Below, one piece after another: positions 1 to 22,347 of a stretch of 56,086 nt of DNA. The notes under the pieces were generated by a model. That model was given only the letters and a program-made list of their open reading frames with translations. It was not told the origin of the DNA and did not search any database. Origin of the DNA: a virus (taxonomy: Duplodnaviria > Caudoviricetes); IMG/VR virus record IMGVR_UViG_3300010396_000051, positions 1 through 56,086 of that record. The stretch is one strand, 5' to 3'. Position 1 is the stretch's first letter. Each line of letters starts with the position of its first letter. Position numbers and translations under genes: made by a program.

Positions 1-123
1 ACAATGGCGCAGGCTGTGTCTGCTTCCCCGTCCATGTATTCGCATGACCCAGCGCAAGGTCGAGCGTCGTGTTGGTTGGTGTCCCGCCAACCGCGAGTGT
101 CCCGCCAGGGCTGGTAATAGTGT
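1..123. repeat. Terminal direct repeat, left copy (123 bp); circular assembly overlap
   Basis: Bases 1-123 are identical to 55964-56086, and a minus-strand ORF reads in frame through the junction. Confidence 0.95.
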
Positions 124-1672
124 CGCCACCACCCCCGCCGCCTCCTCCGTACGCCGTCCACGCAGAGCCATTCCAAGAACAGAGGACCGGGCTCGAACCT
201 CCACCGGTCGTACAATCTGTCCCGCTTGCGCCATCTCTCACGTAAGCAAGCTGGTAATACTCGCTCGCCACGCTGCCCAACTGAGAGACTGTGATGCCGT
301 TCAATCCCCACGGAAACGCGCCATCCACGCCGATGGTGTTGGTCGCCGTGTTGAGGCTGAGAGGATACTTGACGCCGAGCAAATTCGGATTAGGCACGAC
401 TGTTCCGGTGTACTCGACAATCAGCCCAATCGCATCCATTCTCGTTTCGGTAAATCCAGACTCCGGCGCGGATTGAGACACGTGCAACTGGCAGGTAGCT
501 GTTGAGATTGTCGAGCCAGTTATTCCGGTGAGGTTGGTCACCTGTTGCCCCGGCCACACGACGAGATTGGGAATGACGTTTTTCCCAACGCCACCGCATT
601 CGCCCGTATCGAACTGCATCGCAAATCCAGATGTCGAGGAAACGCCGAACGCATAGACATTCGTCACGTTACCGGCCGGGATGCCTGCGGGAAGAGCAAA
701 TCCCGAGTAGTTGACCGTTACCTGCGCTGGCGGAAAACCGAAAGCAAATGCCTGCTGAACAATATCCGCAGATGCCGATGTTCCGGTCGCCGAACAGGTA
801 CTGGAAATTCTGGGCGGCACGGTATCATGCGCGCAATCGGCAACAGTCGGATACAGGATGTAATACTGGTGCGTGTTGTCGGGAAGTTGAATGAGGGGCT
901 GGAGTTGCGCACTGGAACATCCAGGGCAGGAGATATTCGCCGTCCCGCTTGATACCGGACCATTCGCGCCATTCACCTTGATTGGATCAGTAGTGGTCAC
1001 TGACAGTCCGCTCGAAGTCGGAACGTCGAAGTTGATCGTGTTCGTGCCAACGTTGTAATTGCAACTCAATAGCCCTGTGCAGGTGTAGAGAGCGGAGAAG
1101 TACGCGCCGAGGGAGCCGGTAAAATTCCCCACCATCGACTGCGCCGGCTGGTTCGTCACTCCCCAGTGCAGTTGCGGGGTCGTCCCGCCGTTCGTCACAC
1201 TGCATCCCAGCAATGGCCCCATCGTCGGATCGCAGTTGACGCTGGTAACACCTGTCCCGCCGCCGCTGCCTCCCGGCTGGTAGGTTCTGGTTACCGGCTG
1301 CGTAAAGCAGTTGGGAGCGGTTGTGCAGGAGGGATTCGCTCCACCGCCCGTCATCACCACATCGTAGGTAAGACCCTGAGCCGCGTAGAAGATCCAAAGT
1401 CCCGGCGCCACAGAAGCACTATCGTTAGCCGTGAAGGGATTAGCAAGAACGGTCCCAGCCTGATCCGAATAGATCGTCGGCTTGCTGGTTGTTCCGTGTG
1501 TGTACACCGTGACTGTACAGGCCGGGATTGCTCCGACTTGCCAGTTGGTCGCGCTCAATCCTTGCGTAATCGAATGCCGGCCACCGTTGGAGCAGTAGTC
1601 ACTCACGGGGGCAAGCTGCGCCACCGCCGAAAGCGGGGTTAAAAGCAACGCCAACAGCAGTATTCTGCGCAT
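1..1672 (-). CDS. 5' part of origin-spanning ~1455-aa tailspike/tail-fibre-like protein with N-terminal signal peptide (not in ORF track)
   Basis: Manual translation from ATG 1672: MRRILLLALLLTPLSAVAQLAPVSDYC...TVTVYTHGTTSKPTIYSDQAGTVLANPFTAN...; open to base 1 and joins in frame to LLPNLAGGGTQ of ORF 53268..55967. Confidence 0.85.
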   Translation of the reverse strand, partial: MRRILLLALLLTPLSAVAQLAPVSDYCSNGGRHSITQGLSATNWQVGAIPACTVTVYTHGTTSKPTIYSDQAGTVLANPFTANDSASVAPGLWIFYAAQGLTYDVVMTGGGANPSCTTAPNCFTQPVTRTYQPGGSGGGTGVTSVNCDPTMGPLLGCSVTNGGTTPQLHWGVTNQPAQSMVGNFTGSLGAYFSALYTCTGLLSCNYNVGTNTINFDVPTSSGLSVTTTDPIKVNGANGPVSSGTANISCPGCSSAQLQPLIQLPDNTHQYYILYPTVADCAHDTVPPRISSTCSATGTSASADIVQQAFAFGFPPAQVTVNYSGFALPAGIPAGNVTNVYAFGVSSTSGFAMQFDTGECGGVGKNVIPNLVVWPGQQVTNLTGITGSTISTATCQLHVSQSAPESGFTETRMDAIGLIVEYTGTVVPNPNLLGVKYPLSLNTATNTIGVDGAFPWGLNGITVSQLGSVASEYYQLAYVRDGASGTDCTTGGGSSPVLCSWNGSAWTAYGGGGGGGGDTITSPGGTLAVGGTPTNTTLDLALGHANTWTGKQTQPAPL

Positions 1673-1767: not shown

Positions 1768-1786
1768 TACTGCCAACTTGACAATT
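1768..1786. promoter_or_regulatory. Palindrome family A (AATTGYCAASTTGRCAATT), copy 1
   Basis: TACTGCCAACTTGACAATT directly abutting ATG 1787. Confidence 0.8.
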
Positions 1787-2932
1787 ATGAGACGAAAGAT
1801 TCTGTTTCTCAGCGATTCCGTATCCTCGACATCGGGGTTGGGTCGCATTGCCCGCGATCTTGCCTTGCGAGTCCACAAGCACCTTGGAGACGTGTACGAG
1901 GTAGCAACAGTGGGCTATGGAGGGCCGGGGTCCACTTCAATTCCCTTCACTGAATTTCACGTCCACGACATCAAGAACTGGCTCGTTCCCGAGCTACCCG
2001 GCATATGGAATGACTTCGTAGGTCAGGACGAAGGGATTCTGTTCTCCATATGGGACTTGAGCCGTCTCTACTGGCTTGGCATTCCGCAACTCTGCCCGGT
2101 TCCTTTCCTTCGCCAGTGGGTCGAGACAGCGAAGATGAAGAAGTACGTGTACCATGCGATCGACGCAGAGGGTCCGAATGGGAAACTGAGTACGCGCATT
2201 GCGGAGACCATGAAGGGCTTTGACCGGGTACTCGACTACTCGGCCTTTTCCTGCCGGATTACCGGGAATGAAGAGTACCTACCTCATGGGATTGACCGAA
2301 CAGTGTTCTATCCCCGCGATCATGCCCAGGCGCGTCAGAGTTTCATCGAGAAGGGATTTCAGGGACTCACCCCGGATTCGCTCCTCATCGGGATCGTGGC
2401 TACCAACCAGGCGCGGAAGAACTGGCAGCTTGGGATGGAGACAGCCCGCATACTCCTAGACCGCGGCCATGATGTGCGCGTATGGGCTCACACGGACGTT
2501 CTGGACCGTTACTGGTCAATGGGGAACCTCATCTCCGACTACGGGCTTGTCGGGCGCGTGGCGATGACTCTGGACCGCTTTACGGACGATCAGATGGCGT
2601 GGATGTACTCCGCGTGCGACGTCACCCTTGGAATCGCCCCCGAGGGCTTTGGATTTCCTCTGGCTGAGTCCTTGGCCTGCGGAGTGCCGTGCATCGCGGG
2701 AAGCTACGGAGCGCAGGCCGAGTTCGTTCCGAAGCCGATGCAGGTTGATCCCATCGGCTACTTCTACGAGGGAGCCTACTGCTCGAAGCGTCCTGTCCAT
2801 GAACCTGCAAAGTGGGCTCTCCGGGTTGAGATGGTGCTGGAAAAGAAGTATCAGGGGAACATGCTGCCGCCGTCTGTGGATTGGGAGACACTTTGGGGAG
2901 CGTGGGAATCGTGGTTCAGGGAGGGTCTATGA
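1787..2932 (+). CDS. GT-B fold glycosyltransferase (GT4-like)
   Basis: KILFLSDS..SGLGRI N-terminus; VATNQARKN; EGFGFPLAESLACGVPCI (EX7E motif). Confidence 0.9.
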   Translation: MRRKILFLSDSVSSTSGLGRIARDLALRVHKHLGDVYEVATVGYGGPGSTSIPFTEFHVHDIKNWLVPELPGIWNDFVGQDEGILFSIWDLSRLYWLGIPQLCPVPFLRQWVETAKMKKYVYHAIDAEGPNGKLSTRIAETMKGFDRVLDYSAFSCRITGNEEYLPHGIDRTVFYPRDHAQARQSFIEKGFQGLTPDSLLIGIVATNQARKNWQLGMETARILLDRGHDVRVWAHTDVLDRYWSMGNLISDYGLVGRVAMTLDRFTDDQMAWMYSACDVTLGIAPEGFGFPLAESLACGVPCIAGSYGAQAEFVPKPMQVDPIGYFYEGAYCSKRPVHEPAKWALRVEMVLEKKYQGNMLPPSVDWETLWGAWESWFREGL

Positions 2933-3141
2933 GTGAACGTGACTGTATTTCTTGCAAACGATTTCTATCCAACAAGGAAGCGCACACGATTGTGTGGAAA
3001 GTGGGCGGGGAGAGCCGATTTACCGATAGTTTCTATATCTCCTATCCGGCCCAAACCGATGGACCCGTCATCTGTGAAACCTGTATCCCATCCCAAATTC
3101 AGCGTTACCTTACGACAGTCAAAGAGAGGTTTTCGTTTTGA
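2929..3141 (+). CDS. Small Zn-binding hypothetical protein
   Basis: CxxC...CxxC; 4-nt overlaps with both neighbours. Confidence 0.6.
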   Translation: MSERDCISCKRFLSNKEAHTIVWKVGGESRFTDSFYISYPAQTDGPVICETCIPSQIQRYLTTVKERFSF

Positions 3142-3824
3142 AGCATCTGAACATGGACTACTGCATCGCCACTGTCTTCCAGCCGAAGTGGAAGGACTGT
3201 ATCAAGACTTGGTGGCTCACAGAAACCGCAGAGCACCCCATGAGGCTCGCTCAGAACATGGGCGTGGTGGATGCCTACCAGTGGTGCTTCGAGAGGTCCG
3301 ATGCTGACGTGCTGGCGTTCCTGCACGACGACGTAATCATCTCCGAGTTCGGATGGGATAAGCGCGTTCTGAAGGAGTTTGAAGATCCCACCGTGGGACT
3401 CGTCGGATTCTTCGGTGCCAAGGCTCACGGCGATCCCGAGATGTACAAGAAGCCCTACCAACTCTCTCAGCTTGGCCGCTCCGGGTGCCTGTCGAACATG
3501 GTAGACGCGGAGCACCATGGACAGCGGTTCACCGGAGAAACCGATGTGGCAGTCCTTGACGCCTTTTCGATGTTCGTTCGGCGCGAGGTGCTGGAGAAGG
3601 CGGGAGGATGGCCGGTCAACACGCCGGTTGATTACATATCGCCGGATTATTGGATTTCCTGCATGACACGCAGGTTGGGTTACAGGATTCGCGTGGTCGG
3701 GGTTGCCTGCCAGCACTTGAGTGGAGGATCAAATGGACGCAACGTCAAGCCCATCGACTTCGAGGGAGCGCACCGCTACATCTACGAAACCTTTAAAGAT
3801 TGCCTGCCAGCGAGGGTTCCATGA
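3138..3824 (+). CDS. GT-A fold glycosyltransferase (GT2-like)
   Basis: ADVLAFLHDDV; VGLVGFFGA; VAVLDAFSMFVRREV; terminal CQHLSG. Confidence 0.85.
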   Translation: MKHLNMDYCIATVFQPKWKDCIKTWWLTETAEHPMRLAQNMGVVDAYQWCFERSDADVLAFLHDDVIISEFGWDKRVLKEFEDPTVGLVGFFGAKAHGDPEMYKKPYQLSQLGRSGCLSNMVDAEHHGQRFTGETDVAVLDAFSMFVRREVLEKAGGWPVNTPVDYISPDYWISCMTRRLGYRIRVVGVACQHLSGGSNGRNVKPIDFEGAHRYIYETFKDCLPARVP

Positions 3825-4516
3825 TCGTTAATTTTGTAATGCTTTTTCACGGAAGGCCGACCCTGCTAAAGCAGAGCCTTGAGTCGATCGGAGACACGTC
3901 AGGCATTATTTTCACGCTGCACGGAGAAGACCCTCAGCCTGAAGCATTGACAGTCGCTCGCGATTTCATGAGGGAAAACGACGGCTGTCTCAGCGCAACA
4001 GGCGAGAACCGAGGTACAGGGTTAGCGCGGAATGCTGCTATCGACATAGCCTCAAGTGTTCGCGGCGACTTCCTTTACCTGTCAGATGATGACGTGTTCT
4101 TTCTCCGTCCTGATTGGCTCGCAGTGCTGACGCAAATGTTTGAAGAAGTCGAGCAGTACGGATTCGCCGCTCTTGGAGCTTATAACCATCCCTATAATGG
4201 CCCGGTGACGATATTTCCTCCTGTCATCGACAACAAGTACATGGTTGGCGAGGTCTACGCGCTTGCTACTCAGTCCATGCTTCTCCGGTGGGAGACGTTC
4301 TACCGCTTCGGGCCTTTCTGCCAAACGCCGCCAGGGAGGGTCTGCCAGTCGGAGGATGTGGAGTTCAGCAACAAAATCCGTGCTGCCGGCCTGAAGGTGG
4401 GAACCATGATTCCGCCACTGCTGGCGAACACGGGCATCACGAACAGCTGTGGAGACAAGATACCGGGATGGGAGTTGGTTAAGTCTCAATGCCCTGAAGG
4501 AGTAATCTGCGAATGA
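3821..4516 (+). CDS. GT2-like glycosyltransferase
   Basis: ENRGTGLARNAAI; GDFLYLSDDDV (DxD); SEDVEFS. Confidence 0.9.
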   Translation: MIVNFVMLFHGRPTLLKQSLESIGDTSGIIFTLHGEDPQPEALTVARDFMRENDGCLSATGENRGTGLARNAAIDIASSVRGDFLYLSDDDVFFLRPDWLAVLTQMFEEVEQYGFAALGAYNHPYNGPVTIFPPVIDNKYMVGEVYALATQSMLLRWETFYRFGPFCQTPPGRVCQSEDVEFSNKIRAAGLKVGTMIPPLLANTGITNSCGDKIPGWELVKSQCPEGVICE

Positions 4517-5082
4517 CGTTTGCCGAGGCAATGATCGAGGTCCGTAAAACCTCATCCCATACCGCGCTTTCTGATGAAGAGGCGAGAGTTCTCTACGATG
4601 CGATGGCCGGATTGCAATCGCAAGACTTTGTGATTGAGATTGGTTCACAACTTGGAAGGTCTTCTGTGCTCATCACACAGATGGCCCTCTCCCGAGGCTT
4701 CCACTCCATCCACGTCGATCCATTCTGCGAACAGGACGTATGGGCTCACGACTTCATTAAGCGCATGTGTGAGGTACGCAGTGACCGGGACCGTGCATTC
4801 ACCTTCCTCTGCATGAGGACAGATCAGGCGCGAGACATTCTCGACCAACTGCATCCCATCCAACTCATCTACGTGGACGGTGACCACACCTATGCGGGAG
4901 TGAAGACGGACCTTGAGTTCGCCAGAGTAAACCTTGTAGAAGGCGGATACCTGCTCTGTCACGACTACGGCCGCGAGAGTCTGCCGGATGTGTACAAGGC
5001 TGTCTCGGAGTTCCTGTCAGTGAACCCGGATTTCACTCTCGTTGCCCATGAAGGCACGATGGGATGCTGGAGGCGTGGATGA
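4513..5082 (+). CDS. Class I SAM-dependent methyltransferase (Methyltransf_24-like)
   Basis: VIEIGSQLGRSS; LIYVDGDHTY; GGYLLCHDY. Confidence 0.9.
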   Translation: MTFAEAMIEVRKTSSHTALSDEEARVLYDAMAGLQSQDFVIEIGSQLGRSSVLITQMALSRGFHSIHVDPFCEQDVWAHDFIKRMCEVRSDRDRAFTFLCMRTDQARDILDQLHPIQLIYVDGDHTYAGVKTDLEFARVNLVEGGYLLCHDYGRESLPDVYKAVSEFLSVNPDFTLVAHEGTMGCWRRG

Positions 5083-5600
5083 TTGGAATCAACGTAGGCT
5101 CCGGTCAGCGTCCATTCGGAGAGAGTTGGATCAATGTCGATTCGGTTTGGCACGAGGGAATGCCGAAGCCGGACGTGATCTGCGATGGAGCACATTTGCC
5201 GTTCGAGAGTGGATACGCGGATTATGTTTGCCTTCATCACGTTCTTGAACATTTCGGCTGCGGTGAGGGCGAAGGATTGCTGCGTGAGGCGCATCGCGTT
5301 TTGACGCCGGGAGGTTCGCTGCTGGTGTTCGTTCCAGATCTGCGCAAGTTGGTTAAGTTGTGGTTTTCGGGTGAGATTTCGACACAGATTTACATGACGA
5401 ATCTCTATGGTGCCTACATGGGCCACGATGAGGACCGGCACAAATGGGGGTACGATCTCAACTCTCTCGTAGAGTTCATCGACCACTGCCCGCATGAGCC
5501 GCGCTGGAACACGATTAAGCAGTTCGACTGGACACCTATTCCCGGCGCAGACATCGCCCGAGATGACCGATGGATACTTGGAGTGGAGGCGATTAAGTGA
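5079..5600 (+). CDS. Class I SAM-dependent methyltransferase (Methyltransf_11-like)
   Basis: INVGSG..WINVD; HVLEH; EAHRVLTPGGSLLVFVPD. Confidence 0.9.
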   Translation: MIGINVGSGQRPFGESWINVDSVWHEGMPKPDVICDGAHLPFESGYADYVCLHHVLEHFGCGEGEGLLREAHRVLTPGGSLLVFVPDLRKLVKLWFSGEISTQIYMTNLYGAYMGHDEDRHKWGYDLNSLVEFIDHCPHEPRWNTIKQFDWTPIPGADIARDDRWILGVEAIK

Positions 5601-6298
5601 ACCCTGCTTGCCCTGTTCTTATTCTTGTCCGCAACTGCTTCGAACTGACCAAGCGGTGCATTGAGAGTGTTCGCGCTCAGGATGTCGATGATCTTGAGAT
5701 TTGGGTTGTAGACAATGGCTCGTCTGATGGTGTGAGCGAATGGCTGCACGATCAGGAAGACGTGTGCTCTTGGGAATTCCGAGAGAACTTGGGAGTCAGC
5801 AAGGGATGGAACTACGGCCTAGAAGAACAGTTTGCATTTCAAAAGTCGAAACACTGTCTCGTCATCAACAACGACGTGGTGCTTCCGCCGTGGTTCTACC
5901 GTACCCTGCTCTCCTATGACGCTCCCTTCGTGACCGGAGTCGCCATCGACACCATGCCGCTCGATGAGCCAGAGAGAATGCCGCTCACCCCTCACCCGGA
6001 CTTCAGCGCGTTCCTGATTCGGCGCGAGTGTTGGGAGAAAGTAGGCAAGTTCGATGAAGATATGGTGCTCTACGCATCCGACTGTTCGTACCACGTCCGC
6101 GCACATCGGCTTGGCGTTCCGCTGATGAAGGCGAATGTCCCCTTCTATCACGTAAATTCACAGACCATGAAACGCGCAAATACGGAGGAGAAGAGATGGA
6201 TTCAGGAACAAGCGAACAAGGACAGAGCGGTGTTCAAAGCGAAGTACGGATGCCTCCCAGGGACGCCCGAATACGCGAAACTATTCAGCACGCCTTAG
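5597..6298 (+). CDS. GT2 glycosyltransferase
   Basis: WVVDNGSSDG; NLGVSKGWN; VINNDV; VGKFDE. Confidence 0.9.
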   Translation: MNPACPVLILVRNCFELTKRCIESVRAQDVDDLEIWVVDNGSSDGVSEWLHDQEDVCSWEFRENLGVSKGWNYGLEEQFAFQKSKHCLVINNDVVLPPWFYRTLLSYDAPFVTGVAIDTMPLDEPERMPLTPHPDFSAFLIRRECWEKVGKFDEDMVLYASDCSYHVRAHRLGVPLMKANVPFYHVNSQTMKRANTEEKRWIQEQANKDRAVFKAKYGCLPGTPEYAKLFSTP

Positions 6299-6376: not shown

Positions 6377-6586
6377 ATGGCGCGACTGAAGCCAGGTGAG
6401 AAGCGGGTCCAGTTGTCCTTCCAGCGTCCCGAGGATGTGGCGCTGTTCAAGTATCTGGAGCCGCTTGCTTACAAGGCGAGACTCGGATTGCCCGACTTCA
6501 TCCTCGAATCGTTGCAACAGGCTTTTCAGGGGCAGTTCGCCGTATCTGAAACAGATGAGGCAAGTCCCCCGGTGTCGCCGGAGTAG
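6377..6586 (+). CDS. Small putative ribbon-helix-helix DNA-binding protein
   Basis: KRVQLSF beta-strand followed by two amphipathic helices. Confidence 0.5.
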   Translation: MARLKPGEKRVQLSFQRPEDVALFKYLEPLAYKARLGLPDFILESLQQAFQGQFAVSETDEASPPVSPE

Positions 6587-7451
6587 CTGAGAAGCAAACC
6601 GGTTGAAAAGGACAGGCTGCTCTTCCCATCTCATCGCAACTTGACCGCCGCATTGGTTCATCTGCCGATGCGGTTTCCATTCGATAAACCAACCGCTCCA
6701 TGTCGCTTCGCGCCTGCCTCATACGCTCATCTTCGGCGTTGAATTGGATCTTGCGCGTTACGATCAACTCGCCCAGAAGGTCATCATTCTCCATTTGCTT
6801 GAGCCACACGTCAGCCGAGTAGTTCGACTGCTCTCTCCAGACCGTCTTCCAGTTCTCCGTGAATCCTGAGTCCTTCTTTCGAGGAGCGAATCTGAGATTC
6901 TTCTGGATGGGATGCTGATATCCCTTCGCCCACGCCGAGTGCCGTCTTCCTCCCCGCTGCGCTCCGATCAGGACCACAAGCAGCGACATCGGCCGCTCCA
7001 GTGCAGCCAGTTCCCCGATGGTTCCCCATGAGTGCGCGTAGGATCGGAGAGTGTCGTCGTCCATGTGCGATGCCAGGATCACCCGGTAGAGCGTGCCGCG
7101 TGCCTCAAAGAGATTCGACTTCCACTCATGCTCCCCAAGCTTGGTCGGAGCCACACGCTCCATCAGTCCAAATTTGGACCGGAGAGCCAGCCCGATCACT
7201 TCGGCCATCGACTGAACATGTCGGACGACTGAGATAGAGCTAAGATCACCCGAAATTACGTCCACATGAGCCGCAAGGTGCTCGATGGAGGTCTGGGAAC
7301 CTACCACGGGGTCAGAATGCGTCAGCGAGCCCTCTACGCCAGCGTAAAGCAATCCCAGAGGGGATATGGTCCAGTGCTGGTAGTCCCGTTCGAAAGCGAA
7401 GCGCCGGGGGCAGCGGTCGAACACGTCAAGGAGTCGTGCGGTCAGGTTCAT
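6498..7451 (-). CDS. PD-(D/E)xK / Cas4-RecB-like protein, catalytic motif apparently degenerate
   Basis: N-terminal FDRCPRRF and C-terminal C...CPFQPVC cysteine pattern; no clear D...(D/E)xK. Confidence 0.6.
   Translation of the reverse strand: MNLTARLLDVFDRCPRRFAFERDYQHWTISPLGLLYAGVEGSLTHSDPVVGSQTSIEHLAAHVDVISGDLSSISVVRHVQSMAEVIGLALRSKFGLMERVAPTKLGEHEWKSNLFEARGTLYRVILASHMDDDTLRSYAHSWGTIGELAALERPMSLLVVLIGAQRGGRRHSAWAKGYQHPIQKNLRFAPRKKDSGFTENWKTVWREQSNYSADVWLKQMENDDLLGELIVTRKIQFNAEDERMRQARSDMERLVYRMETASADEPMRRSSCDEMGRAACPFQPVCFSATPATPGDLPHLFQIRRTAPEKPVATIRG
7166..7179. promoter_or_regulatory. Palindrome family B (GTCCRAATTYGGAC), copy 1, intragenic
   Basis: GTCCAAATTTGGAC. Confidence 0.75.
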
Positions 7452-8808
7452 CGGGATTAAACAATTCTCTCAGGGGCAGTGACATTATTTCCATACCGGG
7501 ACGTGTTCCGAGAATTTTCCCCACCTTAGATCGAGGGGTGTGCTCAAAGGCTTTTGCAACCTGCTTGTCAGCCTTGGCTGCAACGTCGGCAGGGCGAAGA
7601 ATGCCCGCCAGCCGGGTCGTAAATCCCGCATGGCCGGAACTCGACATATATCCGCGAACCGGGTCTGTCATCGGAGCGCCCTTTGCCTTGCGAGACTTTG
7701 CAGCAAGGTTTTCGACGTGCTCCTGCGTTTGATCTTCAATCGACATCAGGGCGCCACGCTTGCGCTGAAGTTGCTCGAAGTACCCGGATGGCTTCCCGGC
7801 CGCCTTGTCCATCTGCGGATAGACCACATCGCGGATCGCATCGGCTTCTGCTTTGTCGATCTCAAACTCGGGATGCTGGAAGAGGTATTGAGCCTGATCC
7901 GCTGGAGTCTTCATCGAATAGAAGCGGTTCAGTTCCCGGTTGAGAACGGTCCTGCGATCGTTCAGCCATGCGTAGGTCTTCGGTGTGGCGTAGAGCTTCG
8001 CAATGCGGTTCTTCACCGCTCCAATCTTCGCCGGATTCGCCAGAGCGTCTGAGGGGTGAGCAGCAGCAACCTTCTGAATCGAGTCCGCAATCGGCGTCAC
8101 GTCAGTTTTCACGCCTGAAAGCGGAACCATCTTTCCGCCAACGTCCACCTTGTTCATCAGGGCAGTATCGACTTCCGCGGCGATCTTCTTCTTCGCTTCC
8201 GTCACCACGTTAACGAAGTCGCCAACAGTCTTCGCTGGCTGCGTCTTCTCTATCGCTGAAATCTCAGGCATTACCGCGGCAAGGTCTGTCTTCGGGCCAA
8301 GGTCGCCAGCGAACCAGAGTTTGTTGATCGCGCTCTCAAGCGTCGGGCGAAATGCTCGTCCAAGCATCTGGCCTGTCGCTTCCGAGGCTCCCTGCCCCAC
8401 GGTCTGCGTAGCGATTCCGGTCAGAGCCTCTTTCGGAGTCATCTTCTTGTCTTCAGGATGGAAGTGCTCAGTGAGGGACTGGCGAAGAGTCTCCCCCAGA
8501 CCCCCGCCAGCACCCGCACCGGCAGCCGCTGTTGCAACGGCCCCCGGTCCTGTTTCAAGCCCCGCTCCTCCACCGACAATCCCGCCCGCAATTCCACCGA
8601 TGGTCGGAAGTTGGTTGATCGCCTTGTCTCGCAGCGTCATCAAGCTGGATTTGATCCCGGCAGGAGAAAATGGAGCGGGAGATGCGGAAACTGATGCTTC
8701 CGGTCCAATGAGCCGGTCGATTTTCTGCCTGCGCAAGTCTCCCTTTGGGAGTTTGGAACGAATCTCCGAGAGGTCTTTGCGGTCCTGGTCGCTTAGTTGG
8801 TCAGGCAT
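7426..8808 (-). CDS. Putative internal virion/ejection protein
   Basis: Helical Ala/Gly-rich protein with glycine-zipper hydrophobic segment, at end of virion operon. Confidence 0.55.
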   Translation of the reverse strand: MPDQLSDQDRKDLSEIRSKLPKGDLRRQKIDRLIGPEASVSASPAPFSPAGIKSSLMTLRDKAINQLPTIGGIAGGIVGGGAGLETGPGAVATAAAGAGAGGGLGETLRQSLTEHFHPEDKKMTPKEALTGIATQTVGQGASEATGQMLGRAFRPTLESAINKLWFAGDLGPKTDLAAVMPEISAIEKTQPAKTVGDFVNVVTEAKKKIAAEVDTALMNKVDVGGKMVPLSGVKTDVTPIADSIQKVAAAHPSDALANPAKIGAVKNRIAKLYATPKTYAWLNDRRTVLNRELNRFYSMKTPADQAQYLFQHPEFEIDKAEADAIRDVVYPQMDKAAGKPSGYFEQLQRKRGALMSIEDQTQEHVENLAAKSRKAKGAPMTDPVRGYMSSSGHAGFTTRLAGILRPADVAAKADKQVAKAFEHTPRSKVGKILGTRPGMEIMSLPLRELFNPDEPDRTTP

Positions 8809-10493
8809 TAGTGAACTCCGATAATTCTTCCACTCGCGTCTCGATCTATCTGCACAGATCCTCCAAGAGCACCGCCGACTCCAGATTCTCCAATCGGCGT
8901 GTTGCCGCGGAACTGCTCTGCTACCCGTACCTCTTGGAGCAACTGATCGAGCCGCTTCTTCGCGTCGTCGGCGCTGGCAGATTGGAGGACGTTTGGAAAC
9001 TCAATCATCAGCCTTCGGATTCCAGCCTCCGTAGGACGGTTTCCGCGTGTAATCGGCGCCAGACCCGCGACCACTCCAACCGCCGCGTTGTAGAGCCTCA
9101 CAAACTCCTGCTCGTCCTTGTTGAGCGTTCCCGCCGCGATAGGCGCTGCAAGCGAAGTCAACAGTCCCGGCTTCTCCTGAGATGCGGCGAGAATAGGTGC
9201 AATTTTCTCACGCGAAAGTGTCGAGTCGAGCACCTTTAGGGATGGCGAGTTCTGGAGCTGTACCAGTTTGGCCGTCGCCTCATTGATGAGCAGTTTTTCC
9301 TTGGGAGTAAATGCACCCTGCTCCCATCCGTACTTTCTCGCCAGGTCAGCGGCAGGAGCCTTTGCCCTCTGCGGAATGTCTTTGATGTCTTTGCCGTCGA
9401 GGAGTTGATTTGCAAACTCCCTTACCTGTGGATTAATCCCCGGAGCGTCGGGCACGTGACCCTCTGCGTCCAGCTTCGGAGGAGCGAGCGGAGTGCCGCC
9501 AACCTGCGAAGGCTGGACCGGCTTCGCTCCCGTAGTCGGTCGTTTGGGAAGGATGGCCGCAACACCCGTTCTTGGAGCGGCGTTGGGCTGCGACTGCGGG
9601 GCTGGAAGAGTCTGCGGAGTGGTCGTCGTGCGGTTGCCGTACTGATCTACTGAAACGTTCCCTACCCGAGCGGGACCGATCGAAGGGGCTTGCGGGTTCG
9701 GAGAGCCTACGGATGGCTCGTAGAGTCTCTGATTGCCCGCTGTCTGGTAGCGCCCCTTGTCAGTGCCAAGCTCAAAGTATTCCTGCCCATTCCCGGCAAA
9801 GATGGGAAGCAGAAACATGCCATCGGGAATCTGGCTGGCGTTGATCTGGTTTCCGTTTGCATCCTTGAAAACCTTCCCGGCCGCCTGCATCGCAACGGCG
9901 TTCTGCTTACCCACGGCTCCACTGAAGTACGGAACAGGCCGCGCCGTAGAAGTGCCGGAAACCGCATTCCACCCTTCCGGTTCTTCTCCCACTTGGAACC
10001 ACTGGCGAGACTTCCCATCGGGGCTCGTGTATTCCTTGTAGGGAGCCTTACCGCTCTGCCTTTGTACTGCTGCGTCGGTGTCAGCCTGAAGCGTTCCGCC
10101 TTCAGGAACAGGGTTTGGCAAAGAAGACATCGGAGCCTGCGGTCCCTGCGCAAACGCACCGTTTGGGTGAATTGCCTTGCGCAGTTTTTCCATCAACGTC
10201 GGAGCGTGGCGGGGGTGCGAGTAGAGGTCAGATATAGCCTGCGCGTACTGCTGCTGCTGATCATTTGTTAAGGTTCCGTATTTGATACCCGTGGCGAGTT
10301 GATCATCTAAAATCTTAGCCTTTGCGTTGATCTCCTCATCTTCGAGTTTTTCCTTCTGCTTGCGCTGTTCAGCGTCAATCTGTGGAGCTTGGCCGGACTC
10401 GACTTGCGCCACACGTTCGAGCACAGGGACGGCCGCTTTGCCCGCTCGGGCAACGCCGGTACCCACGTCCTTCAAAATGTCGCCAACGCCCAT
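8808..10493 (-). CDS. Putative internal virion/ejection protein
   Basis: 561 aa, Gln/Pro/Ala-rich, downstream of nozzle gene. Confidence 0.55.
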   Translation of the reverse strand: MGVGDILKDVGTGVARAGKAAVPVLERVAQVESGQAPQIDAEQRKQKEKLEDEEINAKAKILDDQLATGIKYGTLTNDQQQQYAQAISDLYSHPRHAPTLMEKLRKAIHPNGAFAQGPQAPMSSLPNPVPEGGTLQADTDAAVQRQSGKAPYKEYTSPDGKSRQWFQVGEEPEGWNAVSGTSTARPVPYFSGAVGKQNAVAMQAAGKVFKDANGNQINASQIPDGMFLLPIFAGNGQEYFELGTDKGRYQTAGNQRLYEPSVGSPNPQAPSIGPARVGNVSVDQYGNRTTTTPQTLPAPQSQPNAAPRTGVAAILPKRPTTGAKPVQPSQVGGTPLAPPKLDAEGHVPDAPGINPQVREFANQLLDGKDIKDIPQRAKAPAADLARKYGWEQGAFTPKEKLLINEATAKLVQLQNSPSLKVLDSTLSREKIAPILAASQEKPGLLTSLAAPIAAGTLNKDEQEFVRLYNAAVGVVAGLAPITRGNRPTEAGIRRLMIEFPNVLQSASADDAKKRLDQLLQEVRVAEQFRGNTPIGESGVGGALGGSVQIDRDASGRIIGVH

Positions 10494-10494
10494 T

Positions 10495-10887
10495 TTAGCT
10501 ACTCGCGTCTACAAAGCTGATTGCCACCACGCACGCCGCGCTGCCGTCCACGTACCAGGCGTTCGCGTCAATCTCGCCCTCAGTGCAGCGGGAGTTCACC
10601 GGGAGAGCCACTGTGGTTCCCGACTGGATGATGAGCGCGGTGTTGTTCCCTTTGCCTGCCGAGGGTCCGTAGTTCACGTAGACTTCGCCGGAAGGCGTGG
10701 CGTCCACCGAGAACCCGATCTGCCGGCACGTCACCGTGTACGGAGGAGTCGCCGGAACGTTGAGCGACTGACTGCCGCTGGCGAGTTTGAGGTTCGCGGT
10801 GACTTTGATGGGAGTCGCCGGAGTGATCGTGATAACCCCTCCCGGTACAACCCCTCCAAACATCTTCTGAAAATTCGGAGCTACCAT
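10495..10887 (-). CDS. Small beta-rich virion protein
   Basis: 130 aa, tightly packed in structural operon. Confidence 0.5.
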   Translation of the reverse strand: MVAPNFQKMFGGVVPGGVITITPATPIKVTANLKLASGSQSLNVPATPPYTVTCRQIGFSVDATPSGEVYVNYGPSAGKGNNTALIIQSGTTVALPVNSRCTEGEIDANAWYVDGSAACVVAISFVDASS

Positions 10888-10895
10888 AAATCTCC

Positions 10896-11537
10896 TTACT
10901 GAGTTGCGTCGAAAATGCTCATGTCTGGGCTGGTGGGCTGCCCAAAGTCCTCAAGTCCTGCCGTCGATGGAGCAGAACCCATATCAAGGTTCGTCAACTG
11001 CTCGGGCTGAAATCCGCCTGCCGCTGGAGCACCACCCAGAAACGGCTCCGCAATGCTCGCCACGCCCGACGCGATGCCGCCCACGTCACTCGTCTGCCGT
11101 TGCCGGTTAGCTGTTGCAAGGTCGGCTTGCTTCGAGAGGTTCGTTGATCCCTGCCCAAGCAGGTTTTCTCCGCCTGCTGTCAGGCTGTCGGCCGCGCCTT
11201 TTTGCAGTCCACCAATGAGGCTGATAATGTTTCCGCGCTCGTTCGTTTGCGCGTTTTGCGTGGACGAGTTCGTTCCGCCGCCACGGTTGCCGAATTGCGC
11301 ATTCGTCAAGGCTTGCTCATTGACCTGCTGCTGCCCCGCTTTGATCTCTGGAGCGAGAGCCTGCGCAATCTTGGTTGGATCGCCAGAGAGGATGTCAGAA
11401 TCAAATCCAAGCCCCTGAGAGACGGAGTTCTCGCCGAGCGGATTTTCAAACGAGGAGAGGCTTTGAAGCCCCTGCTCCTCTTTCTGGGTGGGGTCACCGG
11501 AAAACAGATCAAACAGTCCGCTCGCAATGCTTCCCAT
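10896..11537 (-). CDS. Putative small ejection (DNA transfer) protein
   Basis: Gly/Ser/Gln-rich low-complexity helical protein (QFGNRGGG, GGIASGVAS); position like podovirus pilot proteins. Confidence 0.55.
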   Translation of the reverse strand: MGSIASGLFDLFSGDPTQKEEQGLQSLSSFENPLGENSVSQGLGFDSDILSGDPTKIAQALAPEIKAGQQQVNEQALTNAQFGNRGGGTNSSTQNAQTNERGNIISLIGGLQKGAADSLTAGGENLLGQGSTNLSKQADLATANRQRQTSDVGGIASGVASIAEPFLGGAPAAGGFQPEQLTNLDMGSAPSTAGLEDFGQPTSPDMSIFDATQ

Positions 11538-11557
11538 GTCAATTATCCTACCCTTCT

Positions 11558-12250
11558 TTAAGGCGTATGCACCCAATTAGTTATGATTCCGTCCGTGACG
11601 AACAAATCCGTGCTGCTTGAATCGAGGAACGGTCCCAAATGAATCGTCCCCGTTGCCCCGGCAGTCCTGAGAAGGCCGGAACCAGAGTCAACCGTGATGG
11701 TTTGATTATCCGGCTGGACGTAACCATAGCTTGAATTTGTCGCCAGTTTCGTTGCTCCACACCAGAAGTTCGCTCCATCGAAGTAGACAATGCCGAATCC
11801 GCCCGGAGGAATCGTGTTCTCGCCAAATACACTTCCCCCCACCGGGGCCAATGACACCATCGAGGATGAATCATTGTCGATGATCGTGAACCACGGGATG
11901 AGGACGGTGTTATCGAGGCTTACGATGACCGGCGATGCGTCACCAACGATGATCTTCGCGCCATTGTCGGCCTGCTGCGTCGTGTACGCCGTCACGCCGA
12001 GTTGATCGTTCACCACGCCGAGGCTGGAAATGATGGGAGGCGTAGACCCACCGCCACCCCCGGACGAACTGGAGGACGTGGAGGTGACAGTGGTCTTTTT
12101 GGCTTCCAACTGAGACTTGAGCGCAGCGATCGCCTGGTTGAGATCGACCACCCCTGAAGCCACGTAGCGATGCGCAGCAACTCTCCCCTCCGGTGATTCG
12201 AGGTCGAATGCGGGAAGGCGAACATTGATCGGATTGAGAGGAGAACTCAT
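11558..12250 (-). CDS. Putative tail-associated protein
   Basis: Short coiled coil, Ser/Gly linker, beta-rich C-terminus. Confidence 0.5.
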   Translation of the reverse strand: MSSPLNPINVRLPAFDLESPEGRVAAHRYVASGVVDLNQAIAALKSQLEAKKTTVTSTSSSSSGGGGGSTPPIISSLGVVNDQLGVTAYTTQQADNGAKIIVGDASPVIVSLDNTVLIPWFTIIDNDSSSMVSLAPVGGSVFGENTIPPGGFGIVYFDGANFWCGATKLATNSSYGYVQPDNQTITVDSGSGLLRTAGATGTIHLGPFLDSSSTDLFVTDGIITNWVHTP

Positions 12251-14955
12251 TCTTGTGGCCCTCTGCCGCCAGCAGGCCGGAACATCGGCAGCGGCTTGAA
12301 GGTTCCCTCATCGCCCCACGGCTTTGCAGAGAGCACGCATCCTTCGAGGTTTACGCGGAGAGTCGGGTCAGTGAAGTCGAACTTCGGCTGAAGCAGCTTC
12401 CATTTGTTTTGGGTCACTTTGGTCGTGAATTTAGTAATCTCACCACCGGTCGAGCCCAGAACAATCGGTTGCGGCGCGTAGCTACCGTTATTAGCGTCGG
12501 CAGCCGTGAATGAAACTGTGGCCCCGGAATCACATGCGTACTCAAATGTAGCTTCATAGGCGCTCATCCACCCCAATCCGCCGATGGCCGGTCCCGCTAC
12601 GATGCCTTCAATCGTCTCCCCGGAATTCGACAGCATCAGCCTCACGGTGCCGTCAGAACAGCCTACCAACGTTCCCTGCTGGCTCTCTCCTTCATTCGGA
12701 GCGTGGACGGTAGGCTGAGATCCTGCGTACTGATCCCATATCCATCCCTCTGCTCTTTCGTCAAAAACCCACTGATGTGGTGCCCCGTCCGTCCCGATGT
12801 GGTCGTAGTACATGTAGCCGTTCTGATAAGAGAACCGCTGCTTTTGCGGCTTCGAGTCGTCGGGCGGGAAGATCGTCACCCCGTTGCGCGTGATGGGCTG
12901 CGGAATGGATCCAGAGGCTCCAGTGCTCTCATGCGGGAACAGGGGGTAGAGGTCACCGTCTGTAATCGAGATCGAGGCTGCACCGCCGCGGCTCAAGTGG
13001 ATTCCGTCGTCTACCCGGAAATAGATTTTTCCCGACTTGGTGACCGCGAGGCACCGGGGCATAAATAGCCCTCTGTCGATGCTCGTCGCCTGAAGCGTCC
13101 ATGTCGAGCCAGAAGTACCCGTCACGGTCGCCAGGGCATTGAAGAAGTTGGGATAGATGAACCATGCTCTCTTAATCGAGAACAGTACACCCAAACCACC
13201 CGACATGGTTCCGTTCACCAGCGGCTCGCCCGGGTCGGTCACGTCCATCTGGTTTGTGTCCGGCCAGGAGTCAAGGTTTGAACCGGCACACCAGTAGAGC
13301 GTTCCCGGCCTGTTTGGGTCACCCACGCCAAAGACGTAGTTGACGTTATCGGTGACACCGAAGATGTACGCCACCGGCTGCGCTGCCAGGTCAGGTTCTG
13401 CGATGTTCCAGATGAGATTCGTACCGCCCGGAATCTTCGGGACGTTCACATCGTTGTTCGAGAAGTCCCAGAGGGTCGGAGACGATGGCCGGCGCACGGC
13501 AGTGTAGGCAATTTGTGTAGATGGTCCGATGATAATGATGGTCCCCGGCAGCCAGCGGGTGTTGAAGTGGTCCCCTGAGACGTAAGTCAACGTCTGCGTC
13601 GAGGAATCGACATTGATGACTCCCGAGCGGGGAAGGTCAATCGAAGGCACCGGCTCGTAATTGAAGAACTCGAGTTCCGGGTTGTTCGCCGCCGCAAGGT
13701 CAGAGAGGGTGTCGGTGAAGACTGTTGCCGTGTTTGGGCCTGTCCCGACGTAGGTCGGATTCGCCAGTCCTCCACCCTGCCGGAAGAAGTCGATTGCATC
13801 TACCTGCGGGTCAGGAGACGGCGCCGGAGTGATGTCGGCGTTCTGTGTCGAGTAGGAGACGATGACCTTCATAAAATTGATGAAGGAGCGGTCACTGCCT
13901 CCCGAGGACTGCGTGGTGATGGTGACGCCGAAGCCGAAGGACGGATCGTTGACGATGGCCGGGGTAAGACTCGCTCCCCACGGGTCGTTCGATCCGCCAA
14001 TGAACGTGTCCACAGCGAAAGACTGATTCTGCACGTCCGGAAACTTTGGGTTCCCGATGGGGTTGCCGAGATAGTAGAGCGAGACTCTTGAGAGAATGCC
14101 GGTCCCGGCAAACTGACCGAGCCAGTTCAAATCAGCCGTCACGCCGTCGATGGTGACGTTCGCAGGGACCGAGAGCGAGGGACCGAAGCCAACGGCAATG
14201 ATGGGGTCGGTGATGATGCCAACCGGAATACCCTTCGTCCTGATCTGAGCGCCGTTGCCTTCATACTGCGTAGCGTTGACGGAGATGTTCGGGTTGATGA
14301 CTCCGCCAGTGGCCGCAATTTCGGTCGCAGAGGGGCTGGACTGCGAGTTTGTCCCCGGAAACGATACAGGGGATGGATTCGACCTTGCTCCCGTCTCCTT
14401 GGCCCTGTAGCGGTAGAAGTAGAAAATCTGTGATGGACCGGAGCCTCCACCGGGGAACGTCACGACGGGAGCCTGCTGAGGCTCCGCAATGCCCATCTTC
14501 CGCGAGCGCCCGTCTGAGCGAACCTTAATCATCCCCGTGCAAGGGAATCCCAACGTCATGCCGGAATCGACAAGGACGTTCGGATACGGTGCGGAGTCTC
14601 CGATGTAAGCCCACGGCTGGACTGAAGTGTTTGGCCGGAACGGGACGATGGAGACAGGGTTCCCGCTCAAGCCTTCAGCCACCAAGGCTGAATCAGCGAA
14701 GATCGAGCCTGAGTCCGTCGAGATGATTCGAACGAATCCCGAAGGAGGTCCGGCAGGGGTCAGGTCGTTCATCCGGCAGATAGCATTCACGGAGGAGTCA
14801 ACCGTAACCACCGGATCACCAAGCCCATTGCGAAGAACGAAACCACCTTCTACGTATGCTCTCGTGTTAATCGCAAGCGCAGTTTTCCCCGGCTCTAATC
14901 TGTTGATCGGAGCTGTGAGGTTTATCCCCCTGAAGTTATCGGGTCGCTGGGCCAT
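12247..14955 (-). CDS. Putative tail nozzle/hub protein (short-tail type)
   Basis: ~902 aa; N-terminal NFRGINLTAPINRL..TALAIN pattern typical of nozzle proteins; follows adaptor genes. Confidence 0.6.
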   Translation of the reverse strand: MAQRPDNFRGINLTAPINRLEPGKTALAINTRAYVEGGFVLRNGLGDPVVTVDSSVNAICRMNDLTPAGPPSGFVRIISTDSGSIFADSALVAEGLSGNPVSIVPFRPNTSVQPWAYIGDSAPYPNVLVDSGMTLGFPCTGMIKVRSDGRSRKMGIAEPQQAPVVTFPGGGSGPSQIFYFYRYRAKETGARSNPSPVSFPGTNSQSSPSATEIAATGGVINPNISVNATQYEGNGAQIRTKGIPVGIITDPIIAVGFGPSLSVPANVTIDGVTADLNWLGQFAGTGILSRVSLYYLGNPIGNPKFPDVQNQSFAVDTFIGGSNDPWGASLTPAIVNDPSFGFGVTITTQSSGGSDRSFINFMKVIVSYSTQNADITPAPSPDPQVDAIDFFRQGGGLANPTYVGTGPNTATVFTDTLSDLAAANNPELEFFNYEPVPSIDLPRSGVINVDSSTQTLTYVSGDHFNTRWLPGTIIIIGPSTQIAYTAVRRPSSPTLWDFSNNDVNVPKIPGGTNLIWNIAEPDLAAQPVAYIFGVTDNVNYVFGVGDPNRPGTLYWCAGSNLDSWPDTNQMDVTDPGEPLVNGTMSGGLGVLFSIKRAWFIYPNFFNALATVTGTSGSTWTLQATSIDRGLFMPRCLAVTKSGKIYFRVDDGIHLSRGGAASISITDGDLYPLFPHESTGASGSIPQPITRNGVTIFPPDDSKPQKQRFSYQNGYMYYDHIGTDGAPHQWVFDERAEGWIWDQYAGSQPTVHAPNEGESQQGTLVGCSDGTVRLMLSNSGETIEGIVAGPAIGGLGWMSAYEATFEYACDSGATVSFTAADANNGSYAPQPIVLGSTGGEITKFTTKVTQNKWKLLQPKFDFTDPTLRVNLEGCVLSAKPWGDEGTFKPLPMFRPAGGRGPQE

Positions 14956-16285: not shown

Positions 16286-16542
16286 TTTGCCGCTCTTTTA
16301 CGCTGGCCTTTCTTTCTGGCTGTCTTCTTCGTGGACCCGAGTTTCGGGTTGGCGGAAGCCTTTGTTTGAGCCGCCTTGCGAAACGATTCGTTGGCTTCTT
16401 TAACCATGCCTTCGTCCGCACCCTTTGCTTGCTCCTTCGCCTCTTCCTTCTCGCCGCCCGTGTACTTGCGATATGCACGCTTGACTCTGCCTACGGTGCT
16501 GTCGAGAAGATCGTCAACAATCGCTGATCCAGTGCTGCTCAT
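16282..16542 (-). CDS. Small protein with basic C-terminus
   Basis: KKTARKKGQRKRAAK; 4-nt overlaps with neighbours. Confidence 0.65.
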   Translation of the reverse strand: MSSTGSAIVDDLLDSTVGRVKRAYRKYTGGEKEEAKEQAKGADEGMVKEANESFRKAAQTKASANPKLGSTKKTARKKGQRKRAAK

Positions 16543-16736
16543 CTCTTTTTCCTTCCTGCTCGCTTTCTAGCAATAGCTCTCATGTTTTGCGCGAATATGG
16601 CTTTCTTCTTCATCTTTCCGCCTAGCTTCTTGGCGCGTGCAATCTTCTTCGGAGTGGCTTTCCCGAAACTGCCGAGAGTGCCTTTGGCTTTCATGCGAGC
16701 CGTTGCTTTCTGAATGAAGTGGTTTTTCTTCTTCAT
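16539..16736 (-). CDS. Small Lys/Arg-rich protein
   Basis: MKKKNHFIQKA...KRAGRKKR; GGAGG RBS. Confidence 0.7.
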   Translation of the reverse strand: MKKKNHFIQKATARMKAKGTLGSFGKATPKKIARAKKLGGKMKKKAIFAQNMRAIARKRAGRKKR

Positions 16737-17740: not shown

Positions 17741-17750
17741 GTCGCTCCAT

Positions 17751-17787
17751 AAAAAAGGGGGCCGAGGCGATTTAAGCCTCTAGCCCC
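17751..17787 (-). terminator. Intrinsic terminator after capsid/decoration genes
   Basis: GGGGC-TA-GAGGC loop GCCTC-G-GCCCC followed by TTTTTT on minus strand. Confidence 0.75.
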
Positions 17788-17809
17788 ATTAGGCCGCACG
17801 AAAACTCGG

Positions 17810-18148: not shown

Positions 18149-18151
18149 GAC

Positions 18152-18829: not shown

Positions 18830-18859
18830 TTCTGTCTCCTAGCCAGTTCAAAACAAAAA

Positions 18860-21527: not shown

Positions 21528-21545
21528 CTCGTCTCCATGTCAGGA

Positions 21546-21907: not shown

Positions 21908-21983
21908 GTGCGTATTCTCCTGTTTGGGATTTAGGAGCCGCTGACCGCATTCATACAGAAGGGAGCAGTAATCCGTTGCCCCA

Positions 21984-22012
21984 AACATAAGGCCACGAAA
22001 TTACTGCGTCAA
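21984..22012 (-). promoter_or_regulatory. Sigma70-like promoter for head genes
   Basis: TTGACG-17 nt-TATGTT. Confidence 0.6.
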
Positions 22013-22336: not shown

Positions 22337-22347
22337 TTCTTTCTCCA

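Follow-up and report, generated by a model that had tools for sequence, protein, structure and literature searches.

A tailspike-type protein of a temperate tailed phage bears a conserved Sec-type leader and sixteen sequential pairs of cysteines

The assembly of tailed phages is taught as a purely cytoplasmic process. The viral record analysed here (IMG/VR IMGVR_UViG_3300010396_000051, 56,086 bp, 55.7% G+C; the whole of this stretch is called the window below) raises the question of what a Sec-type signal peptide is doing at the N-terminus of a 1455-residue protein that looks like a phage tailspike. The question was addressed from the sequence, by way of the anatomy and conservation of the leader, the pairing and co-variation of the cysteines, the predicted folds and the gene context. 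It is likely that the protein is of the tailspike type and carries a functional export signal. For the complete reading our confidence is lower, somewhat better than even: the phage would be a temperate, podovirus-like virus of Acidobacteriota, and the protein its spike, built on the P22 plan, produced as a Sec preprotein and docked onto the particle at the time of lysis.

The gene is split by the ends of the record. The first 123 bases of the window are identical to the last 123 (55964-56086 = 1-123), an exact direct terminal repeat in agreement with the IMG/VR class of the record (direct terminal repeats). When one copy of the repeat is removed, a single minus-strand open reading frame (ORF) of 1455 codons runs from 1672 to 1 and then from 56086 to 53268. 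The junction of the two ends was confirmed by a separate database protein of 353 residues (P0065), which covers residues 468-820 of the predicted product with one mismatch. The ATG at 1672 is the first ATG, GTG or TTG past the upstream stop. The origin-spanning ORF of about this size proposed in the initial annotation is thus a single and real reading frame; positions 1-1672, where that annotation had placed the protein, hold its start but contain only the first 557 of its 1455 codons. Genes of a tailed phage were recognized elsewhere in the window with Pfam and PHROGs, namely those for a large terminase, a major head protein, a SU10-adaptor-like protein, an integrase, a GH24 endolysin and two HNH endonucleases. 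The phage is temperate, the integrase gene lying at 42200-43387.

With the sequence MRRILLLALLLTPLSAVA-Q, the N-terminus of the protein is charged +2 and combines a Kyte-Doolittle maximum of 3.64 over eight residues with small residues at positions -3 and -1. The h-region, ILLLALLLTPLS, is an uninterrupted hydrophobic core of 12 residues, and residues 2-16 were modelled as a helix. Leaders were called with a rule that combines an h-core of at least 2.2, a net positive n-region and a small-x-small site. The Sec-type signal peptide announced by the initial annotation was recovered with every feature that such a rule seeks in a substrate of Sec and signal peptidase I: a charged n-region (MRR), an h-region and, at the AVA-Q site, small residues in positions -3 and -1; there is no lipobox, residue +1 being Gln and not Cys. 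The rule was positive for one of the 46 window ORFs tested, and for the next gene when its start was corrected; it found no leader among the proteins of the window's virion module.

A leader of this kind is a property of the family. A library of 1.84 billion proteins was searched with the N-terminal piece, and the best 150 of the 1211 representatives found at E <= 1e-3 were retained. The rule was positive in 133 of these best 150, and most of the 17 negative sequences are fragments or start within the leader. The expected conservation is therefore observed, and the homologues, for which a start downstream of the leader had been considered, begin with the same kind of leader instead. A leader could be placed in 102 of the best 150 homologues, with a median length of 19 residues. 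In these 102 sequences a Lys or Arg is found among the first eight residues in 97, the -1 residue is Ala (81), Gly (11) or Ser (7), 99 in all, and the -3 residue is Ala (52), Leu (28) or Val (10), 90 in all. At least 90% of the sequences keep Gln at +1, and the sequence of the h-region is free to vary. Homologues of the C-terminal piece were positive in 38 cases out of 47, many of them with other N-terminal modules. For related phage loci a looser rule was applied, in which any Met within the first 110 residues was accepted as start; it was positive in 47 of 51 fibre genes versus 2 of 175 core virion proteins (among them adaptors 0/26, hub-like proteins 0/27, head proteins 1/36, portals 0/16, other head and tail proteins 1/43). 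The fibre of one of these loci, L054, seems to be without leader and without the first Cys.

Other explanations of the hydrophobic segment were rejected. A twin-Arg occurs in only 21 of the 102 placed leaders, so that the signal should be addressed to Sec, and export by the twin-arginine translocation (Tat) pathway was discarded. A conserved structural helix was also discarded, because a variable h-region followed by a kept +1 Gln is the mark of a cleaved Sec signal. Finally, a leaderless isoform translated from an internal start was not retained, since a start near the cleavage site is not conserved: no in-frame start codon is present from -4 to +8 of this site in 32 of 46 fibre genes, and an in-frame start preceded by a Shine-Dalgarno-like motif was seen close to it in 1 of the 46.

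The second feature of the protein is its cysteine content. Its 32 Cys form 16 sequential pairs, spaced by 3-35 residues within a pair and by 18-187 residues between pairs; none of 100,000 random placements of the cysteines gave pairs as tight, which gives a measure to the "many paired cysteines" noticed in the initial annotation. Cys amounts to 2.2% of the residues, versus 0-1.3% in the core virion proteins, several of which have none; in the virion module the HNH endonuclease and a 130-residue protein are exceptions to this range. The two Cys-pair modules quoted in that annotation, C568-C584 and C1245-C1262, are present, and are copies of a recurring C-x16/17-CG loop. Of 191 family proteins, 40 contain this loop and 160 have an even number of Cys. 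In the alignment of 135 representative homologues, C27 and C52 are both present in 118 sequences and both absent in 16, a single one is never observed and one sequence is gapped. On a quick tree built without these two columns (about 110 columns, weakly resolved), the state of the pair changes at least eight times. Consecutive pairing is the easiest outcome of co-translocational oxidation in the periplasm by DsbA-type systems. Taken together, the 16 sequential pairs and the co-variation of C27 and C52 strongly suggest that the spike is folded with disulfides. In the 16 representatives without the C27-C52 pair, as well as in the fibres of L060 and L061, both residues are replaced jointly, mostly by Ser or Ala, and the leader is kept.

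The nature of the protein was deduced from its folds and from the place of its gene in relatives. Residues 1-557 and the last 938 residues were modelled separately, with a mean predicted local distance difference test (pLDDT) of 69.9 and 74.8, respectively. In the N-terminal domain (N-domain), pLDDT reaches 86-97 over residues 51-111 and 46-58 over residues 31-50. Residues 19-140 were compared by VIA with about 48,000 PDB representatives. The matches include the tail machine of cyanophage Pam1 (7eeq, Z 7.6, 94 residues aligned, root-mean-square deviation 8.6), the head-binding domain of the P22 tailspike (2vnl, Z 6.2, 83 residues, root-mean-square deviation 3.4), the Pan3 tail complex (9vyg, Z 6.1, 24% identity), the in-situ P22 hub-tailspike entries 8eb7 and 8tvr (Z 6.0 and 5.9) and Sf6 gp8:gp14N (7sg7, Z 5.7), the tailspike particle-binding domain recurring in six matched PDB entries. 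By sequence, the family profile matches the Pan3 spike (9vyg, E 0.008-0.02) at the very motif picked out in the initial annotation. This segment, TVTVY..GT..TIYSD..LANPFTA..FYA..YDV, is present at residues 53-105 as described, but the name of fibre attachment domain given to it is better replaced by that of a candidate P22-gp9-like particle-binding domain. A Pfam search with 17 N-domain sequences returned chance rows only, the Atlas lead for the domain scored 0.80 only, and Foldseek of the 557-residue model against the PDB gave nothing at E <= 1e-3. The N-domain is probably shared with the tailspikes of the P22 type.

The right-handed beta-helix anticipated from the sequence was modelled at a pLDDT of 85-97 and gave 79 Foldseek matches in the PDB at E <= 1e-3, with phage tailspikes at the top (CBA120 TSP2/TSP3, Depo32, Acinetobacter, Sf6 and Dettilon spikes; E from 9e-8, with a probability of 1.00, to 2e-4). 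Before the helix, a jelly-roll domain resembles carbohydrate-binding modules (CBMs): VIA matched it to a CBM that binds alginate, to CBM86 and to the C-domain of a GH86 enzyme with Z scores of 6-7.4. After it, a C-terminal tip domain has as nearest Atlas neighbours clusters that are 94-100% viral (score 0.94-0.95, TM 0.82-0.85). Neither piece of the 1455-residue ORF was assigned to a family by Pfam (E <= 0.01) or PHROGs; precomputed Pfam annotations of the 47 C-piece homologues mention PF13229 (Beta_helix) in four and PF12708 (Pectate_lyase_3) in one. PDB sequence searches with the C-piece, the 449-residue and 906-residue tail proteins and the adaptor returned nothing usable.

When IMG/VR was scanned with the N-domain, 55 loci were obtained and all 55 contain, within 10 kb, homologues of structural genes of the window phage (head in 37, adaptor in 35, portal in 31, the 449-residue protein in 29 and the 906-residue protein in 28). 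The order adaptor, fibre, 449-residue protein was read by eye in 19 loci; the fibre gene stands between the 449-residue and 906-residue genes in three, and after the gene of a 317-residue protein, as in the window, in seven. Two N-domain genes are found in eight loci, and the fibre slot is often occupied by one to five more large ORFs that bear a leader and are rich in Cys. Among the homologues the N-domain is kept while the rest of the protein varies. In bacterial genomes, a profile search detected the domain in seven contigs, all from Acidobacteriota: the chromosome of Tunturiibacter gelidiferens and metagenome-assembled genomes of Solibacter, Terracidiphilus and Terriglobales. The same phage genes lie beside it in four of these seven contigs, and it was found in only 2 of 301 sampled Acidobacteriota genomes, which indicates a phage domain rather than a common host protein. 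From the folds of the N-domain and the beta-helix, the viral tip domain and the place in the virion module of relatives, we conclude that the 1455-residue protein is a tailspike-type receptor-binding protein.

These data are extended by phages in culture. Tunturi_1 and Tunturi_2 are described in PMC11924767 as cultured podoviruses of Acidobacteriota. The N-domain is shared by gp12 of Tunturi_1 (PP887698), which is 47% identical to the window protein over residues 27-111 (E 7e-12), and by Tunturi_2, and the head protein of the two phages is related to that of the window phage (29% identity, E 2e-34). Compared with the window protein, gp12 has the same N-domain and the same kind of leader, present at its deposited start, and differs by its body and tip and by its gene, which directly follows the adaptor gene inside the structural module. 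At the deposited starts, leaders are carried by gp12, gp13, gp14, gp16 and gp17 of Tunturi_1, whereas its terminase, portal, head protein, adaptor, gp30 and gp31 showed none. The depositors annotated gp14 as "tail spike protein" and gp17, which contains 32 Cys, as "virion structural protein". The leader-bearing block of Tunturi_1 is directly followed by the lysis cassette (L072, gp20-23), as in the window, and this cassette interrupts the structural module; the association of a leader-bearing spike block with lysis genes may be a conserved linkage of late genes whose products are directed to the envelope. Leaders were also seen in the siphovirus Tunturi_4 (L070/L071), on gp113 ("tail protein", 10 Cys) and gp114 ("virion structural protein", 20 Cys), and not on its annotated tail fibre gp111; within a single host genus, leaders are thus found in phages of different tail types, though not on all of their fibres.

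According to these results, the spike would begin with an N-domain that binds the particle, continue with a module for sugar binding and a depolymerase of the beta-helix type, and end in a viral tip domain. Its chain would be exported unfolded via SecYEG and cut by signal peptidase I after AVA, with the Gln left as N-terminal residue. It would be oxidised while emerging, with the formation of about 16 consecutive disulfides, and the spike would then fold in the periplasm. DNA-filled particles devoid of spikes would be built in the cytoplasm, and after the opening of the inner membrane by a large-hole holin the spikes would meet these particles and the N-domain would dock on the adaptor or hub. 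The leader-bearing proteins of 841 and 118 residues encoded by neighbouring genes would be exported likewise, and the 841-residue enzyme, which has no anchor, may act free. A leaderless endolysin, such as that of the window, requires a holin making large holes, so that particles and spikes should share one space once the holin fires. P22 spikes bind finished heads in vitro, and the late addition of spikes is therefore physically plausible. As a prediction from sequence, export followed by periplasmic disulfide folding is well supported; we infer that the leader is cleaved, that the disulfides are made, and the time and place of docking, attachment to the particles being expected at lysis. A wider proposal, which we hold to be slightly less probable than its contrary, is that the tailed phages of Acidobacteriota make capsid and tail core in the cytoplasm and their whole host-recognition set in the periplasm, stapled by disulfides and hardy in soil, the two being joined after holin action. 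Such an assembly in two compartments would explain the association of spike genes that encode a leader with the lysis cassette.

An exported protein of this build could also never become part of a virion. It would then be a free depolymerase, released with the 841-residue and 118-residue proteins into the periplasm or the medium, where digestion of the exopolysaccharide or lipopolysaccharide of the host would ease the escape of the progeny or destroy the receptors on debris. The leader and the Cys pairs are compatible with this role, a second leader-bearing beta-helix enzyme devoid of anchor adjoins, the gene is directly upstream of the lysis cassette and away from the tail genes, and tailspike-like glycan enzymes do exist in bacteria, as reported for Pantoea WceF (PMC7949094). 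We consider it unlikely, however, because a constant N-domain joined to a variable remainder is the classic pattern of virion-anchored receptor-binding proteins and because the gene is located between those of the adaptor and the hub-like protein in 19 relatives. Moreover, tailspike domains that bind the particle are among the matches of the N-domain model, Pfam and PHROGs named no other candidate spike in the window, and Tunturi_1 gp14 and gp17 are a tail spike and a virion structural protein according to their depositors. If, on the contrary, the leader did not serve for export, the hydrophobic N-terminus would belong to a cytoplasmic protein, for example as a membrane tether that would collect spikes on the inner side of the membrane, or as a buried joint between spike and tail, and assembly would be conventional; to our knowledge, all the tailed phages that have been studied assemble their spikes in the cytoplasm. 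This seems rather improbable, since an h-region that varies freely while keeping the properties of a signal, ahead of a conserved small-x-small-Gln site, is what a cleaved signal looks like. In addition, a 12-residue h-core is too short for a stable membrane span, and 16 sequential pairs with strict co-variation of C27 and C52 suit a reducing compartment poorly.

Expression from the prophage was also considered. Switched on in lysogens from the promoter region between it and the divergent glycosyltransferase cluster, the gene could give a surface or periplasmic protein that alters or strips the receptor glycan, which would exclude superinfecting phages or benefit the host. The phage does possess an integrase and is temperate, a cluster of glycan-modifying genes is transcribed away from the gene (L007, L022, L061 and L062 have the same pairing) and a weak sigma-70-like site lies upstream. 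That site, however, is no better than a chance match, the gene belongs to a late structural operon in most relatives, and no terminator separates it from lysis genes that a healthy lysogen cannot express, so that we regard this role as very improbable; display by lysogens, raised in the initial annotation, received no particular support. An error of annotation would place the true start after the hydrophobic stretch, and TTG and GTG codons do exist in frame within the first 23 codons, but we give it practically no credit: the kind and position of the leader are conserved in homologues, start codons are missing around the cleavage site in 32 of 46 relatives, and Tunturi_1 gp12 was deposited with a start that takes in the leader.

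Several points nevertheless weigh against the docking at lysis of an exported spike. Spikes and particles that join after lysis run the risk of dilution, and we know of no tailed phage in which they are joined only after the membrane has been opened. In the window the gene is located outside the tail module, at the head of an operon with a secreted enzyme that looks free and with the lysis genes, and beside glycosyltransferases, an arrangement that would equally suit a secreted enzyme foreign to the virion. The leader call relies on a home-made rule, checked against core proteins. Z scores below 8 are middling for the N-domain, as transthyretin-like and CnaB sandwiches score alike, the sequence link with Pan3 is weak (E about 0.01) and the N-domain has no match to the Pfam family Head_binding. 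CheckV estimates the completeness of the record at 77% despite its terminal repeats. Lastly, the main text of PMC11924767 contains neither "signal peptide" nor "mass spectrometry" and no virion proteomics.

With the P22-type tailspikes (P22 gp9, Sf6 gp14, Pam1, Pan3), the window protein has in common a right-handed beta-helix and, probably, the small N-terminal beta-sandwich before it, which docks on the adaptor or hub; the likeness to Pan3 extends to a shared motif, [YF]xTGTTTxxxxYxxxxxxxLxNP, at 24% identity. As for these spikes, the gene belongs to a short-tailed virion module, in view of the 55 loci out of 55 and of the cultured relatives, which are podoviruses. The P22 tailspike gene is placed beyond those of the ejection proteins and beside glycan-modifying genes, and the window gene is placed likewise. 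P22-type spikes are leaderless and fold in the cytoplasm, whereas the window protein has a conserved Sec-type leader, of 18 residues, and 16 Cys pairs. It is also more than twice as long. Ahead of the shared motif it has some 30 additional residues, in which one Cys of the conserved pair is located, and both its CBM-like domain and its viral tip domain, which forms a separate unit, are additions. The CBA120 TSP2/TSP3, Klebsiella Depo32 and Acinetobacter phage tailspikes resemble it by their beta-helix (Foldseek E 9e-8 to 3e-5, probability 1.00), with an identity of 8-15% only and different N-terminal adaptors; these depolymerases are not known to carry a leader. Among viruses, the closest parallel is g3p of filamentous phages, a receptor-binding protein that is exported by Sec and acquires its disulfides in the periplasm. 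Inoviruses assemble at the membrane and without a cytoplasmic capsid; in the present case the exported part would have to meet a cytoplasmic tailed particle. The MAT fibres of Bdellovibrio bacteriovorus (PMC10769870) are similar in architecture, with a long fibre and a variable tip, and differ in being cellular proteins that a predator, instead of a virion, carries on its surface. One C-terminal piece of these fibres, 8ond, gave a weak Foldseek row only. A literature search through result listings and the openings of abstracts, in a collection without most subscription journals, yielded no description of Sec leaders on the tail fibres of tailed phages.

If the proposed route is correct, a whole phage lineage that includes the cultured Tunturi_1 exports its receptor-binding proteins via Sec and folds them with disulfides, and the last step of assembly is tied to lysis. 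The expression of such spikes for depolymerase or host-range work should then be periplasmic, with the leader removed or kept deliberately. A leader together with paired Cys would be a sequence mark by which genes for host recognition could be picked out in soil phages that are uncultured and lack database matches, and one would have to ask how particles devoid of spikes come together with spikes in the periplasm. A direct test of the proposal is possible, since both Tunturi_1 and its host, Tunturiibacter psychrotolerans X5P2, are in culture.

Table 1. Features of the tailspike-type protein and of its surroundings in the window (residues refer to the 1455-residue product)
Feature	Position	Strand	Basis or remark
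Tailspike gene, first 557 codons	1..1672	-	start ATG 1670-1672; ORF runs off base 1
Tailspike gene, rest (residues 518-1455)	53268..56086	-	ORF after repeat removal; stop 53268-53270
Signal peptide, residues 1-18: MRR n-region, ILLLALLLTPLS h-region, AVA-Q site	1619..1672	-	rule-based
N-terminal beta-sandwich, residues 19-135, with C27-C52 and NPFTA; candidate particle-binding domain	1268..1618	-	conservation, model
Jelly-roll domain resembling CBMs, residues 266-423	404..877	-	VIA, weak Foldseek CBM rows
Cys-loop module 1, C568-C584, CLDVDNTGQVAGTGAACG, then Gly run	55884..55934	-	sequence
Right-handed parallel beta-helix, tailspike/depolymerase type, residues ~697-1197	54045..55547	-	model, Foldseek
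Cys-loop module 2, C1245-C1262, CAQFSGTTGQIADSGAPCG, then Gly run	53850..53903	-	sequence
C-terminal tip domain, beta-sandwich, residues ~1269-1455	53271..53831	-	model (pLDDT ~80-92), Atlas
841-residue protein gene, internal ATG 53041, leader MAIIKLISNLALKYIPLLLLGATVLYG-Q; beta-helix-type enzyme, two InlB B-repeat domains	50516..53041	-	homologues, rule
118-residue protein gene, unlisted; ATG overlaps stop of 841-residue gene (ATGA); leader MRHLLPILFLLTSPLWA-S, 2 Cys	50163..50519	-	
Lysis cassette	47508..48718	-	downstream of tailspike, same strand
GH24 endolysin, no leader or signal-anchor-release (SAR) segment	48284-48718	-	
41-residue protein, one transmembrane segment	48143-48268	-	
87-residue holin-like protein, two transmembrane segments	47883-48146	-	
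Lipoprotein, LAAC lipobox	47508-47879	-	
Glycosyltransferase/methyltransferase cluster, divergent from tailspike gene	1778..6298	+	Pfam/PHROGs
Virion module: terminase, portal, major head protein, adaptor, tail and ejection-type proteins	6498..27847	-	Pfam/PHROGs, position
Adaptor	16733-17740	-	virion module
449-residue hub-like tail protein	14936-16285	-	virion module; 906-residue tail protein also in module

As shown in Table 1, the tailspike gene is followed by that of the 841-residue enzyme. The ORF listed at this place (909 residues, 50516-53245, minus strand) starts too far upstream, its homologues placing the start at the internal ATG. The protein possesses 22 Cys in 11 sequential pairs and no particle-binding domain. 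Its family comprises more than 430 homologues; the leader rule was positive in 91 of the 120 listed, and the mature N-terminus is conserved (Q.WSGLLAP.RAIDWS.AGAG.IPARTTIC). The gene is a candidate for a common host enzyme captured by the phage, in favour of which stand the number of homologues and the location of some of them on contigs of more than 400 kb; against this origin, a homologue was found, at E <= 1e-20, in only 2 of the 301 sampled Acidobacteriota genomes. One homologue, P0237, carries in the same chain the precomputed Pfam domains VKOR (PF07884) and DsbA-like thioredoxin (PF13462), i.e. a disulfide-forming module fused to this enzyme family.

The 118-residue protein may be a small periplasmic helper or a decoration protein. 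Two genes without assigned function separate it from the lysis cassette, and no terminator-like site was found on the minus strand between the tailspike and the lysis genes. An endolysin gene just downstream of the fibre gene was observed in L030 and L049 too.

On the other side of the tailspike gene, the cluster at 1778-6298 is made of six genes, four glycosyltransferase-like and two methyltransferase-like, with an ORF of 86 residues within. The first glycosyltransferase gene adjoins the fibre gene in the same way in L007, L022, L061 and L062. P22 pairs its tailspike with O-antigen conversion, and the glycosyltransferase block of the window recalls that pairing.

In the virion module, a 707-residue gene product was called portal by its place, its size and the annotation of Tunturi_1, as it has no family match. 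Three proteins of the tail module (460, 561 and 226 residues, 7426-11576, minus strand) contain no Cys, unlike the spike, and are likely ejection proteins by position only. The two HNH endonuclease genes are related; one lies between the terminase and portal genes (24637-25254, minus strand) and the other at 45993-46505 (plus strand), and copies were seen at differing sites in the relatives L010, L011, L025, L047 and L054. A phosphoadenosine-phosphosulfate reductase-like gene (PHROG 424, E 4e-45) is present at 29940-30716 on the plus strand.

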